A stretch of DNA of 64,000 nucleotides from a virus (lineage: Duplodnaviria > Caudoviricetes), in IMG/VR virus record IMGVR_UViG_3300032327_000953, positions 128,001 to 192,000 of that record; one strand, 5' to 3'. Under the pieces are notes generated by a model that was given only the letters and a program-made list of their open reading frames with translations, was not told the DNA's origin and did not search any database. The translations under genes were made by a program, and so were the position numbers. The first letter of the stretch is position 1. Every line of letters starts with the position of its first letter. Below are positions 26,123 to 32,842 of this stretch, in pieces.

Positions 26123-26809
26123 ATGACTTTTGATGCTATAGTTATTAGTGATATTCATTTGGGGAGTAATGTTTGTCAGGCTAAAACTCTAGCATCTTTT
26201 CTGTCTAGGATTGAACTTGGAGAGACCGATACTGATACTTTAATTATCAATGGAGATTTATTTGATAGTTGGGATTTTCGCAAACTAAAAAAAGATCACT
26301 GGAAGATACTGTCTCAAATTCGTAAAATATCTGACATTATTAAAGTTATCTGGATTAGTGGCAACCATGATGGGCCTGCTGATATGGTGAGTCATTTGAT
26401 TGGTGTTGATTTTATGAATGAGTATAGTTTTATCAGTGGAGATGAAAAGATATTAATCTTACATGGAGATATTTTTGACAATGTGATTTCCAAATATCCT
26501 AGACTAACGAAAATAGCTGATTATATTTACAGATGGCTACAAATTTATGCGGGATTATACTTCTCAAACCTTGCTAAACGTAGTAGTAAAACCTTTTTAA
26601 GATGTTCTCAGGAAGTTTGTGAAAGAGCAAAGTTATATTGCTCTATTAAAAAATGTGATTCAATAATTTGTGGTCATACCCATTTAGCTACCACAGATGT
26701 CTCTGGATCAACAAACTACTATAATAGTGGATGTTGGACTGATCATCCTTGTTCATATATCTCGATCAAAGATGGTCATATTAAAATAAACTATGTTGAT
26801 GTATTATAA
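26123..26809 (+). CDS. metallophosphoesterase, LpxH/UDP-2,3-diacylglucosamine hydrolase-like
   Basis: SDIHLG, NGDLFD, SGNHD, LHGD.FD, ICGHTH, YNSGCW. Confidence 0.85.
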   Translation: MTFDAIVISDIHLGSNVCQAKTLASFLSRIELGETDTDTLIINGDLFDSWDFRKLKKDHWKILSQIRKISDIIKVIWISGNHDGPADMVSHLIGVDFMNEYSFISGDEKILILHGDIFDNVISKYPRLTKIADYIYRWLQIYAGLYFSNLAKRSSKTFLRCSQEVCERAKLYCSIKKCDSIICGHTHLATTDVSGSTNYYNSGCWTDHPCSYISIKDGHIKINYVDVL

Positions 26810-26814
26810 TAAAA

Positions 26815-26840
26815 AACTCCCAGTATTTCTACCGGGAGTT
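26815..26840 (-). terminator. hairpin terminator between convergent genes
   Basis: AACTCCC/GGGAGTT stem with an A-run on the left (U-run for the minus strand). Confidence 0.6.
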
Positions 26841-26872
26841 CTTATTAAAAGAATTGTTAGACTAAACTAACA

Positions 26873-28138
26873 TTAGGCTTTTGGTTTTTGATCTTTTAGC
26901 ATATGTTTTAATCTAGCATTTAGATCATCAGTTCTTGGTTGCTCTGATAATCTTAAAGCTGTAAACATTTCATTTGAAACTTCTGATGGAAACTCACGTT
27001 TATTTCTAGCTGTACGATTATCTTTAACATAAGTCATACCCGATACTGGATACATATTATTCATTGGATATGAAGTTAAGATACCATTAGCATAGCAATT
27101 AAGATGAGTATCTGTTAATACTCCATAAAAATTCAAATCGCCACTAGCACTCACCAACTCTTTAGATACTAATGTAGTATTAGTTCCATTTGCTTTAATA
27201 GTAACCATACCGCTTGGGGTACTATTAGGCATTGTACTAACGAATGAATTAGAATCAACGCTATAAACTCTATGACCCAAAGCTGGAGACGTACTATCTA
27301 AAACTGTTCCATCAGCAAAAGTAACTTTACTATATTTATCTGCTGGTTGAGCAACAGATAGCCATGCTGGTTTAGCAGTATCAGACTTGCCTTCATCAAA
27401 ATTCCAGACTAAAAGATCATCATTATAAGTTAAATCTTCAACATTTTTCTCAGAACCATCAGCAAGAGTAATCTTTGTTCCCTGCAAGAAACATGAACCA
27501 GTAATCTTTACTGTTTTTGTTGGCCCATAGAACATTACTTCATCATCAAGAACATGATCATAAGCATACATCCAAGGAGTAACATAAAATGTTCCAATGT
27601 CGCCACCAACATAAAGAGTAAAATCTGATCCATTTAAGTAGCCATAAACATTATTAGAATCAGAATAATCATAATCTGTGTCCCAAGTTGGAGCTTTAAC
27701 AGTTTTACTAGCAACATAACCAACACCTATAACATAATCATCATACTGATCACCAGCACTAATTGGTTGAACTTCAACATAAGCACTAGCATTAGCATTA
27801 TCTGTTAGTTCGCTAAGGTAAACTTTAAATGGCTCCCTAACAACATCATGCCTATTATCGTTTGTAGCAATATTTGCTGCAAATTTAAGAGTATAAGTAT
27901 CAACTAAACCACTACCAGCTATTACCGAAGAACTAGTTACTGTCATCTTTTTAGATTTATCAACAGCGCTAAAACTATCAACCTTATCACTAACTTTTGA
28001 TAATAATGCTCTCATGAAAGCTCTCATATCATCATTGTTTGGCTGAAAAGAAGAATCAAAATTATCTTTATGCATATAAAAATAATCACCATCCCAATCA
28101 CTATCAAATAAATATTCGTTCACATACTGTTTAGCCAT
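26873..28138 (-). CDS. Hint (Hedgehog/intein)-domain autoprocessing protein, probable virion/surface protein
   Basis: GS|CFLQGTKITLADG (C216), GHRVY, FYGVLTDTHLNCYANGILTS; about 70-aa C-terminal extension. Confidence 0.8.
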   Translation of the reverse strand: MAKQYVNEYLFDSDWDGDYFYMHKDNFDSSFQPNNDDMRAFMRALLSKVSDKVDSFSAVDKSKKMTVTSSSVIAGSGLVDTYTLKFAANIATNDNRHDVVREPFKVYLSELTDNANASAYVEVQPISAGDQYDDYVIGVGYVASKTVKAPTWDTDYDYSDSNNVYGYLNGSDFTLYVGGDIGTFYVTPWMYAYDHVLDDEVMFYGPTKTVKITGSCFLQGTKITLADGSEKNVEDLTYNDDLLVWNFDEGKSDTAKPAWLSVAQPADKYSKVTFADGTVLDSTSPALGHRVYSVDSNSFVSTMPNSTPSGMVTIKANGTNTTLVSKELVSASGDLNFYGVLTDTHLNCYANGILTSYPMNNMYPVSGMTYVKDNRTARNKREFPSEVSNEMFTALRLSEQPRTDDLNARLKHMLKDQKPKA

Positions 28139-28166
28139 TCGTAATCTCCTTTATTGTTATTGTTAA

Positions 28167-28544
28167 TTAAGCTTCTGTTGGAAAACTAATTGGTGCATTT
28201 GTTACATTCAAATTCATAGTAACTGTAAAAGTTACCGTCTGACTATTTGCATCAATTGTTTTTGTTGCTTTTGCAATACTAAAATTAGCTGGTTTCTCTT
28301 CAACAGTCAATGCATTATAAGTATTATTTACAGCATTTAAAACTGAATAAACAAATTCTGGAGTATCTTTTCTGTTATCATAATTATAAGATTCCAACAT
28401 TATCTGACTTTCTGTTTGGTCATCATAATATGGAATAAAAACTCCACCATATCTACCATAAACCAAACCTCCCCACATACCATGAGATGCTGCAAAACCG
28501 TCACTTGGAAATACATCATTCATACTAAAATTAACTGATGGCAT
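28167..28544 (-). CDS. hypothetical beta-rich protein, co-transcribed with the Hint protein
   Basis: 125-aa ORF, AAAGGAG RBS on the minus strand. Confidence 0.7.
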   Translation of the reverse strand: MPSVNFSMNDVFPSDGFAASHGMWGGLVYGRYGGVFIPYYDDQTESQIMLESYNYDNRKDTPEFVYSVLNAVNNTYNALTVEEKPANFSIAKATKTIDANSQTVTFTVTMNLNVTNAPISFPTEA

Positions 28545-28657
28545 ATTTTGCTCCTTTAATTAGTACAAAATAAAAAGTTTACTATATTTAATTCCTCTAT
28601 ATAATACACTATTTTAGGGGAATTTTGCAGTAACCTGTTTTTTTTAAAGATCAATGC

Positions 28658-28685
28658 TTGACAGTGCCGATAACTGTGGTATACT
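28658..28685 (+). promoter_or_regulatory. sigma70-type promoter with GCCGATA in the spacer
   Basis: TTGACA(28658-28663)-16 bp-TATACT(28680-28685). Confidence 0.7.
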
Positions 28686-28721: not shown

Positions 28722-29126
28722 ATGGGTAAGGGTCAAAAAACTTGTGATAAATGTGGAGCTACCACAGGCCCAAGAGCTTATATGTGTCCTAAATGTAATG
28801 CTCCATTTGTTTTTAAGGCAAAAAGCAAAGAGGCAAAGAACACCAAGATTATTCGTGATTTTAACTGGAAAGAACTGGTTAAGGGAGATCGAATCAGAGT
28901 TGGTGGAGGCCCGTACTTTGTTAGCAAGGGAGAATTTATCCCTATGGGTTATAGAGGTCGTTTTGTTGTTGAGGCTCTTGACCATGATGGAATTAAAGCA
29001 TGGGGTCTAGACAAGCATCAAGGCTTCTGTCACATTTATATGGGTCTGGATACTCAGAATAAAGAAACTGGAGTTTGGAAGATAAAACATAAGCTTATGA
29101 AATTGAAAACTAAAGTTGAGGTTTAA
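28722..29126 (+). CDS. zinc-ribbon-containing hypothetical protein
   Basis: CDKC...GPRAYMCPKC; CAGGAG RBS. Confidence 0.6.
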   Translation: MGKGQKTCDKCGATTGPRAYMCPKCNAPFVFKAKSKEAKNTKIIRDFNWKELVKGDRIRVGGGPYFVSKGEFIPMGYRGRFVVEALDHDGIKAWGLDKHQGFCHIYMGLDTQNKETGVWKIKHKLMKLKTKVEV

Positions 29127-31507: not shown

Positions 31508-32842
31508 ATGCTAAAATTTTGGAAAACACAGGAGAAATTGGAAATGTCATTTGAGCATCTGAGCGGTTTTGTTAGTGATCTGAAAGCAACTAGTAGTACG
31601 ATTGACAAAGTTGGAATTATTGAGGACTATACCTCTTCCAATAAGGCTGGAGCAGATTTTATCAAAAAGATTCTACTTTATACATACCATCCTCTTTGGC
31701 AGTATAATGTGACTAGTGACAATCTTAAAAAGAAGTCCTCTCTTAGAGGCAAATCACACAAGACTATTTTTGATTTGTTGGATTCTTTGAAGAATAGGGA
31801 AGTTACGGGGCATGATGCTATCGGAGCAGTTAATACTTTCATCGACAATAATGGACACGAAGAACTGATTCACTGCATAATTGATAAAGATTTGAAAACC
31901 CGTGCTGGAGATAAGCTTATCAATAAGGCTATTCCAGATCATATTCCCACATTTAGCGTTGCTCTTGCCGATAAATATGTTTCTAAAATTGTAGACTGGA
32001 AGGATGGATGGTATGTTAGCAGGAAGATCGACGGTGCTAGATGCGTTGCTATTGTTGACAGTAATAGCAATGCTACCTTTTATTCCCGCACGGGAAAAAA
32101 CTTTGATACTCTTGATATTGTTAGCGGTGGCATTAAAGCTTTGGGACTTACTAATGTAGTTCTTGATGGAGAGCTTTGTCTTGTTGATGAAGATGGTAAT
32201 GAGGATTTTCAAGGAGTAATGAAAGAACTTCGTAAGAAAGATCATACTATTCCTAATCCTTCATATAAAATCTTTGATATGATTACTCATGATGAGTTTT
32301 ATAGTCAGAAGGGAGAAAAGAATAGACCATTCGGTATTAGACTCAAGAATCTTACAGAGATTATGAAGAAGAACGAATGTCCATGCTTGACACTTTTGGA
32401 ACAGTCTTTGATTAAGGACGAAAACCATTTTCAAGAATTTGTTAAAGAATCTACTCAAAATGGCTGGGAGGGATTGATGCTTCGTGCCGACACTCCATAT
32501 AAAGGAAAACGATCCAAAGACCTACTAAAGTATAAATCATTTTTTGATGACGAATATGAAGTTCTCGACACTGAAATGGGGCCATTCCGCTATGTTAAGA
32601 ATGGTGCAGAATGTGAGGAGACTATGTTGAGTTGTGTTATGATTCAACATAAGGGTCATACTGTCAGGGTGGGTTCTGGTTTTAGTATTGATCAAAGACA
32701 GGAGTTTTATAAGAACCCTAAGAAAATTCTTGGTAAGATCATTTTGGTACAATATTTCGAGGAGACAGAGAATGAAAAAGGTGGTATCTCTTTGAGGTTT
32801 CCAACATTCAAATATCTATATGGAGATTCTAGAGATACATAA
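31508..32842 (+). CDS. ATP-dependent DNA ligase
   Basis: Motif I RKIDGAR, LDGELC, YKIFD, WEGLMLR, LLKYK, OB-fold VGSGFS and SLRFP. Confidence 0.95.
   Translation: MLKFWKTQEKLEMSFEHLSGFVSDLKATSSTIDKVGIIEDYTSSNKAGADFIKKILLYTYHPLWQYNVTSDNLKKKSSLRGKSHKTIFDLLDSLKNREVTGHDAIGAVNTFIDNNGHEELIHCIIDKDLKTRAGDKLINKAIPDHIPTFSVALADKYVSKIVDWKDGWYVSRKIDGARCVAIVDSNSNATFYSRTGKNFDTLDIVSGGIKALGLTNVVLDGELCLVDEDGNEDFQGVMKELRKKDHTIPNPSYKIFDMITHDEFYSQKGEKNRPFGIRLKNLTEIMKKNECPCLTLLEQSLIKDENHFQEFVKESTQNGWEGLMLRADTPYKGKRSKDLLKYKSFFDDEYEVLDTEMGPFRYVKNGAECEETMLSCVMIQHKGHTVRVGSGFSIDQRQEFYKNPKKILGKIILVQYFEETENEKGGISLRFPTFKYLYGDSRDT

Follow-up and report, generated by a model that had tools for sequence, protein, structure and literature searches.

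What can a Hint domain do at the end of a phage protein when it is unable to splice? The question is raised by P0001, a 421-residue Hint-capped protein encoded on the minus strand (26873..28138, stop codon at 26873-26875) of a 64,000-nucleotide stretch of DNA, hereafter the window. The window covers bases 128001-192000 of IMGVR_UViG_3300032327_000953, an IMG/VR virus record of 238,135 bp that has direct terminal repeats. Inteins, Hedgehog proteins, BIL domains and polymorphic toxins are the known bearers of Hint domains, and an initial annotation of this locus had described P0001 as a Hedgehog-like, non-splicing Hint protein lying in a two-gene module with a smaller upstream gene, P0002. Sequence comparisons indicate that the Hint domain of P0001 and the conserved tail that follows it (together Hint+tail) form an exchangeable C-terminal cassette, which caps many phage and bacterial surface proteins. 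The cassette is probably a self-removing cap that acts by an acyl shift followed by hydrolysis or thiolysis, a reading in which we infer the cleavage itself.

A Hint domain without a splicing end

The Hint domain occupies residues 216-356 of P0001 (27071..27493, minus strand), as delimited by fold matches and conservation. It starts at the junction ...KITGS|CFLQGT, with the Cys216 codon at 27493-27491, carries the block-B His as H289 in 'LGHR', and closes on a block F/G-like segment (...HLNCYANGILTS) that ends ...ANGILTS356. This is followed by Y357 instead of His-Asn, and then by the remainder of a 65-residue tail (357-421). The junction, Cys216, the GHR His, the NGILTS end and the tail had all been read correctly in the initial annotation.

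An AlphaFold2 model of P0001, built on 69 sequences, has a mean predicted local distance difference test (pLDDT) score of 77.6, which rises above 90 over most of residues 216-400. When the Hint region of the model was compared with more than 25 solved Hint domains using VIA-align, Z scores of 12-17.7 were obtained. The Tetrahymena BIL2 domain (6tmm) gave Z 17.7 with a root-mean-square deviation of 2.5 over 148 residues, the Clostridium thermocellum BIL domain (2lwy) Z 16.5, Hedgehog (1at0) Z 14.3 for model residues 216-359 against chain residues 258-402, and mini-inteins Z 13-15. Foldseek matched the BIL2 entry 6y75 at E 7e-11, and a profile made from 60 relatives matches BIL2 at E 1e-8 with H289 aligned to H69 of BIL2. 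Judged on the model, the Hint-fold match of residues 216-356 is far beyond chance. No Pfam Hint model, including PF01079, scored above threshold for P0001, which returned only sub-threshold Hint-clan and AXH matches. Weak matches were scattered among the 60 members: PF01079 in 6/60 (best E 7e-5), Hint_2 in 5/60 and PT-HINT in 7/60. PHROGs, NCBIfam and PADLOC contain no family for P0001 or P0002.

Both C216 and H289 are present in 60/60 diverse relatives, which share 35-45% identity with P0001. D240, W245, F247 and Y363 are also invariant among them, D248 is nearly so, and ANGILT, N361, M368, K372, R396, L397 and E399 are at least 90% conserved. The proposed Hint domain therefore stands, on its fold match and on the presence of the two residues of the first step, Cys1 (C216) and the block-B His.

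The end of the domain differs. The structural ends of inteins map to P0001 residue 357 (Tyr), and residue 356 is Ser. Position 357, the equivalent of the terminal Asn of inteins and BIL2, is occupied in the 60 relatives by Cys (32), Ser (10), Leu (8), Asp (5), Asn (2) or Tyr (1), and also by Ala or Thr. Position 358 is Pro in P0001 and Arg in 41/60 relatives, the others having Ser, Lys or Pro. On the evidence of the sequence and the 60-member alignment, the P0001 Hint has no terminal Asn or His-Asn and no +1 Cys, Ser or Thr. Splicing is thereby excluded, and the earlier description of the domain as non-splicing is upheld.

The same residues bear on two other readings of P0001: an intein or type-A BIL domain, splicing or cleaving at both of its ends, and a pretoxin-HINT from which a C-terminal toxin is released. 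P0001 does have weak, sub-threshold matches to Hom_end_hint, Intein_splicing and PT-HINT, and mini-inteins are good structural matches, but the intein version is contradicted by the missing end residues and also by the lack of any homing endonuclease within the domain. The distribution of the cassette, given below, makes both versions highly improbable.

An exchangeable C-terminal cassette

A total of 124 proteins match P0001 at E <= 1e-3. Twelve of these are full-length phage relatives with 61-90% identity, and the rest match only the last ~205 residues, at 35-45%. In most, the BLAST alignment starts at or within 1-2 residues of Cys216, and the module is nearly always the last part of the protein. 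At Cys216 the column entropy drops from 3.6 bits to 1.3-1.7 bits. The proteins that bear Hint+tail range from 240 to 2217 residues and occur in about 150 loci, 75 in bacterial metagenome-assembled genomes (MAGs) and 77 on viral contigs. Gut and rumen Clostridia and Alphaproteobacteria make up most of the MAGs, the remainder being Gastranaerophilaceae, Bacilli and others, and phages of 350-570 kb are among the viral contigs. The cargo includes collagen, SprB, tip-attachment Ig, fn3 with Laminin_G, Kelch, K1-lyase_C, Flg_new and LRR_5 domains, and type IV pilin leaders (N_methyl).

The N-terminal cargo is unrelated between members and the 65-residue tail co-occurs with Hint. This tells against an intein, since its 'N-exteins' here would be mutually unrelated and its 'C-extein' fixed to the Hint. 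A pretoxin is contradicted by a tail that is conserved rather than polymorphic, by the absence of an immunity-like gene after P0001, and by a gene that ends at a terminator. Among the ~150 loci, no family of neighbouring genes is shared by more than 12, so Hint+tail needs no dedicated partner gene.

Individual loci show the range of settings. On a 340-kb phage contig (L002:431-14152), the gene for a 374-residue Hint-capped protein belongs to the structural module, where it follows a gp13-like neck gene and precedes the gene for the tail sheath. In a Clostridia MAG (CALXXE010000022.1, L014:120-6127) three tandem genes of 630, 671 and 611 codons each end in Hint+tail, two Hint+tail genes are in tandem at L021, and one relative on a bacterial contig adjoins SecA. 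The 375-residue protein P0061 (ENA) has a tailspike-type K1-lyase_C domain at residues 2-64 (PF24146, E 1.5e-10), and its Hint+tail starts at about residue 174, some 110 residues beyond that domain.

This strictly C-terminal cassette, borne by many phage and bacterial proteins, has no Pfam model. In literature on Hint domains together with phage, tail fibre, prokaryotic Hog or BIL, no description of the Hint+tail family was found. Bürglin mentions a further bacterial protein group with a divergent C-terminal Hint-like domain (PMC2362128), which may be the same family. Hint+tail fits best as a branch of the Hint superfamily that has no name yet.

The conserved tail

The tail of P0001 (residues 357-421; 26876..27070, minus strand) was recognised by its conservation in relatives. 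In the 60 members, conservation of residues 357-375 equals that of the Hint core; it is moderate over 376-400, and the last 20 residues vary. N361, Y363, M368, K372, R396, L397 and E399 are near-invariant. Conservation of the tail had been put forward as a check on the earlier reading, and the stretch 357-375 and the nearly invariant R396, L397 and E399 bear it out. Modelled pLDDT is 80-97 over residues 357-420, with two short helices at 389-394 and 406-415. The tail is hydrophilic, with a grand average of hydropathy (GRAVY) of -1.14 and an isoelectric point of 9.7; the family median GRAVY is -0.85.

A tail as well conserved and as confidently modelled as this one could have a task of its own. 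It might select a nucleophile, such as a sugar, an amine of the cell wall, or a lysine of P0002 or of some capsid or tail protein, that attacks the thioester formed in the same first step, so that the N-fragment is ligated in the manner of Hedgehog or BIL2. Attachment of the N-domain in this way was the inference drawn in the initial annotation. The near-invariant K372, R396, L397 and E399 fit such a role, as does the matching Hog layout (PMC9163320). Sequence (E 1e-8) and fold (Z 17.7) agree that the nearest solved relative of the Hint domain is BIL2, which is reported to conjugate its upstream domain to lysines (PMC8616854). The hydrophilic character of the tail, unlike that of a sterol-recognition region, speaks against a lipid or sterol adduct. 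Ligation to any acceptor would further have to be reconciled with ~150 loci in which no acceptor or partner gene is conserved, with hosts that extend from Clostridia to Alphaproteobacteria to phages, so that the acceptor would have to be generic, and with the thiol-rich cytoplasm in which phage proteins fold. We regard ligation as a tentative alternative, unlikely on the present evidence.

N-terminal domains and the paralog P0002

Upstream of the Hint domain P0001 has two parts. Residues 103-215 (27494..27832, minus strand; end ...KITGS215) are assigned as an FnIII/Ig-like beta-sandwich from VIA-align and the AlphaFold2 model. Residues 100-214 match DUF3823 and FnIII domains (4eiu, 4yok, 2ibg and 1cfb) at Z 9-10, and pLDDT in the sandwich region is 70-89. 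Domain A, residues 1-102 (27833..28138, minus strand), is shared with P0002 according to profile comparison and has low pLDDT in the monomer model. The earlier remark that the N-terminal part resembles Fn3 domains consequently holds for residues 100-214 and fails for residues 1-100, which are a separate, poorly modelled domain. The N-terminal 215 residues gave eight matches among 1.8 billion representatives, and 7/8 came from the lineage of this same two-gene module.

P0002 (28167..28544, minus strand), defined by its open reading frame (ORF) and by hhalign, is a 125-residue paralog of P0001 residues 9-102. Its residues 22-124 align with that segment with a probability of 93% and E 3e-7, and in a six-frame translation of the genome the P0001 N-domain profile matches P0002 at E 2e-6 and nothing else. 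We conclude from these profile matches that domain A and P0002 are paralogous. P0002 has 23 homologs, all in related phages, several of them on contigs that also bear P0001 homologs. In its model (pLDDT 65.7), residues 61-78 form a helix and residues 88-110 a hairpin. Searches with this model gave no fold match in BFVD (best E 0.23) or among 48,000 PDB chains (best Z 3.0), and thus no recognisable fold for domain A. P0002 is always co-encoded with P0001, and its K59 and K92 are invariant; both points count in favour of ligation, with these lysines as possible acceptors.

The P0001-P0002 pair also occurs, at 40% identity and again counter-oriented, in a different phage of 148 kb, where the neighbourhood is another one, with Thy1 on one side and trypsin-like and HNH genes on the other. 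In the cultured phages of INPHARED, blastn and tblastn found no relative.

Natural breaks at the first cysteine

Two metagenome alleles are interrupted at or just after Cys1. In the first (L163:2347-3618; ENA ERZ4201038 NODE_6751), whose 11.5-kb contig has the same neighbouring genes, TGA stands at the Cys1 codon (...KITGA*FLQGT...) and the Hint+tail frame downstream is intact. The TGA could be a nonsense allele giving the 'processed' N-fragment directly, or it could be read through. Selenocysteine or read-through was considered, and no SECIS-like hairpin was seen downstream of the TGA by eye, no fold having been run. In the second allele (L010:954-2331; ENA ERZ28594036 scaffold_12402) the N-domain ORF ends ...TEC-stop, right after Cys1; after 25 nt containing GGAG, a separate ORF starts MCLITGTKITLAD (MCLITGT...) and encodes an intact Hint+tail, so that each side of the break has its Cys codon. 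L164, a third case and a shorter one, may be a frameshift. Two independent interruptions at the one place where truncation gives a near-processed N-fragment are unlikely by chance, and they suggest that the N-fragment works without ligation. Such alleles cannot form the thioester on which ligation depends, yet they persist.

A dispensable two-gene module

P0001 is present in single copy in the 238-kb genome and has no signal peptide. The window has a GC content of ~33% and contains phage-type genes for an ATP-dependent ligase, IMPDH, glycosyltransferases and tRNAs. From 3 to 107 kb the genome has a long block of large ORFs on the minus strand, which we assume to be the structural block; a long plus-strand block covers 128-238 kb. 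Within the latter, P0001 and P0002 form a two-gene minus-strand island with plus-strand neighbours, and the two counter-oriented ORFs noted at the outset were recovered at the same positions. Each gene has an AAGGAG-type ribosome-binding site.

Comparison with sibling loci delimits an accessory module of ~1.8 kb (26810..28616, minus strand) that consists of a terminator, the Hint-protein gene, the paralog gene and a promoter-like motif. We retrieved 22 viral loci by their left-neighbour metallophosphoesterase (96-98% identical), of which 20 span the module site. The module is absent from 16/20, in which window position 26800 is joined to ~28657 by a ~45-nt spacer that leads directly into the TTGACA-N16-TATACT promoter of the next gene. 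It is present in 1/20, and in 3/20 a 230-residue HNH endonuclease (PHROG 3322, E 1e-20; L169:5684-6385 and L182:5684-6370) lies at the same site between the metallophosphoesterase and Zn-ribbon genes. No P0001 homolog occurs anywhere in four sibling genomes with a completeness rating of 100%, of which three have terminal repeats; the same search recovered the gene in the window's own genome as a positive control. As it is missing from most sibling loci and from the four complete genomes, the module is dispensable, and its site is a hot spot for insertion. On the plus strand, at 28658-28685, a sigma-70 promoter close to consensus (TTGACA, 16 nt, TG-TATACT) precedes the gene for the 134-residue Zn-ribbon protein at 28722, and it is kept in all sibling phages, with or without the module.

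The terminator, an intrinsic hairpin with a U-run 3' of the Hint gene (26811..26840, minus strand), was not listed by a simple pattern scan and was revealed by RNA folding (-20.7 kcal/mol, z -6.6, 0/200 shuffles as good). The motif AGTGTATTATATAG (28597..28610, minus strand), 66 nt upstream of the P0002 start, was identified by its resemblance to a GGTGTA-T(A/T)TAG motif that precedes many genes of the 3-107 kb minus-strand block by 36-68 nt. Minus-strand examples of GGTGTA-T(A/T)TA(G) lie at 31925, 76566, 80047, 95850, 101236 and 124911 (G000 C1), and some plus-strand genes have the motif too. It is a candidate phage-specific, perhaps late, promoter on the basis of its sequence. The T4 late promoter TATAAATA is not enriched, and none occurs upstream of the module. 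The motif and the orientation of the module suggest late expression, and the two genes are probably expressed late.

Proposed processing of P0001

In the reading we favour, P0001 would be made as a precursor consisting of domain A, the FnIII-like sandwich, Hint and tail. The Ser215-Cys216 bond would undergo an N-to-S acyl shift assisted by His289, and the thioester would be resolved by water or a small thiol, splicing being precluded since the domain has neither the terminal Asn nor the +1 nucleophile. The 215-residue N-fragment would be released and Hint+tail discarded. The cap may act as a folding, assembly or timing device, exchangeable among unrelated cargo, and in this freshwater jumbo phage it would be carried by a dispensable module. 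P0001 and P0002 are possibly accessory virion or surface proteins. For this phage we infer the hydrolytic outcome, the late expression and the virion role.

Several observations weigh against the self-removing cap. The strong conservation of the tail, including K372, R396 and E399, exceeds the obvious need of a throw-away cap, and BIL2, the closest relative with a solved structure, goes beyond cleavage to ligation (PMC8616854). The alleles L010 and L163 are each known from one metagenome contig, of low coverage or short, and could be dead. The case for a virion role consists solely of gene orientation, the upstream motif and analogy. The Thr of TxxH is not conserved (P0001 has Ala three residues before H289, in a column with gaps or variable residues), and P0001 has Gly in place of the block-F Asp.

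The loss of this Thr and Asp would also fit a Hint+tail that is non-catalytic and retained as a distal binding or structural domain. Several Hint-fold domains have lost catalysis, and the cleavage that a self-removing cap calls for is putative. A domain of this kind is difficult to reconcile with Cys1 and His289 each being kept in 60/60 members despite 35-45% overall identity, and the sharp homology boundary at Cys1, together with the breaks there, is what a processing site predicts; we consider a non-catalytic domain improbable.

Ligation is less favoured than the self-removing cap, as the lone junction-truncated alleles and the absence of a conserved neighbour gene argue that it is not obligatory. 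It can be put in a more specific form, in which Hint+tail is an ATP-independent protein ligase cassette and a tail-positioned amine (a lysine of P0002, one of a virion protein, or K372 of P0001 itself) bonds the N-fragment at Ser215 through an isopeptide link. In this form we find it doubtful.

The outcome matters beyond this phage. Should Hint+tail only cleave, the chaperone domains that remove themselves from phage fibres would have a new counterpart, one based on a thioester. Should it ligate, biotechnology might take an interest in it as a portable device that couples proteins without ATP; phage fibres, pilins and adhesins would owe to such a ligase a one-shot covalent coupling, the prokaryotic equivalent of Hedgehog cholesteroylation and BIL2 ubiquitin-like conjugation. 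The paralog pair, the insertion-deletion polymorphism of the 1.8-kb module and the junction-break alleles are new. The phage is a compact test case, with a 421-residue precursor that has no signal peptide, and the module-free sibling genomes and junction-truncated alleles are natural controls.

Comparison with known systems

Phage tailspikes and fibres can carry a C-terminal intramolecular chaperone of the endosialidase type, an exchangeable module that removes itself after assembly by cleavage of a serine-lysine type. Its likeness to Hint+tail, which likewise sits on many unrelated proteins, is a functional analogy only: fold and chemistry are different, and no resemblance in sequence or structure was noticed, no test aimed at one having been made. 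Inteins are inserted in a conserved host protein, whereas the parts upstream of Hint+tail are unrelated between members. Pretoxin-HINT proteins combine a variable toxin domain with an adjacent immunity gene, where P0001 has a conserved tail and then the terminator.

The BIL domains of types A and B are non-intein Hints of bacterial proteins that vary and are often secreted or exposed at the surface; they have no +1 nucleophile, and cleavage rather than splicing is their main activity (PMC4031507). Type A has a C-terminal His-Asn, whereas the P0001 Hint ends Ser356-Tyr357. Type B has no similarity to intein block G, whereas Hint+tail keeps a block F/G-like '...H.N.(F/Y)ANGILTS'. The conserved tail and the strictly C-terminal position are outside both type definitions.

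BIL2 of Tetrahymena thermophila BUBL1 (6TMM/6Y75) is the best match by both profile and fold. Cys1 and the block-B His align (H69 = H289), and the end motif FANGVLA corresponds to YANGILT in P0001. The terminal Asn143 of BIL2 falls at Tyr357 in the profile alignment (the entry title reads 'C1A-N143A'). The structure providers call H69 catalytic and report that BIL2 conjugates its upstream domain to lysines by isopeptide bonds without ATP (PMC8616854, section 2.4). BIL2 thus acts on the domain upstream of it, as is proposed for the P0001 Hint. It differs in being eukaryotic, in lying between two ubiquitin-like domains and in having no conserved 65-residue tail.

With Hedgehog, Hint+tail shares an N-terminal cargo that varies, a Hint that begins with Cys and has no terminal Asn, and an extension of ~65-70 residues at the end of the protein. 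The general-base Asp of Hedgehog (D46/D303) may have its equivalent in the invariant D240 or the near-invariant D248. By the 1AT0 residue offset, the consensus '...ILTSC' resembles '...ASCYA' of Hedgehog, and the position of the SCYA Cys is Tyr357 in P0001 and Cys in 32/60 relatives. The Thr of Hedgehog TXXH is not conserved in the family, and the hydrophobic helix-loop-helix of the sterol-recognition region (PMC9163320) is absent, the P0001 tail being hydrophilic. Unlike Hedgehog, P0001 has no signal peptide and its host is a phage. Its Hint is no closer to Hedgehog than to mini-inteins, and PF01079 remains below threshold. The Hedgehog-like label given to P0001 is accordingly retained for the arrangement of its parts and given up as a statement of closest kinship, for which BIL domains are nearer: Hint+tail is Hog-like in layout and BIL-like in sequence and fold.

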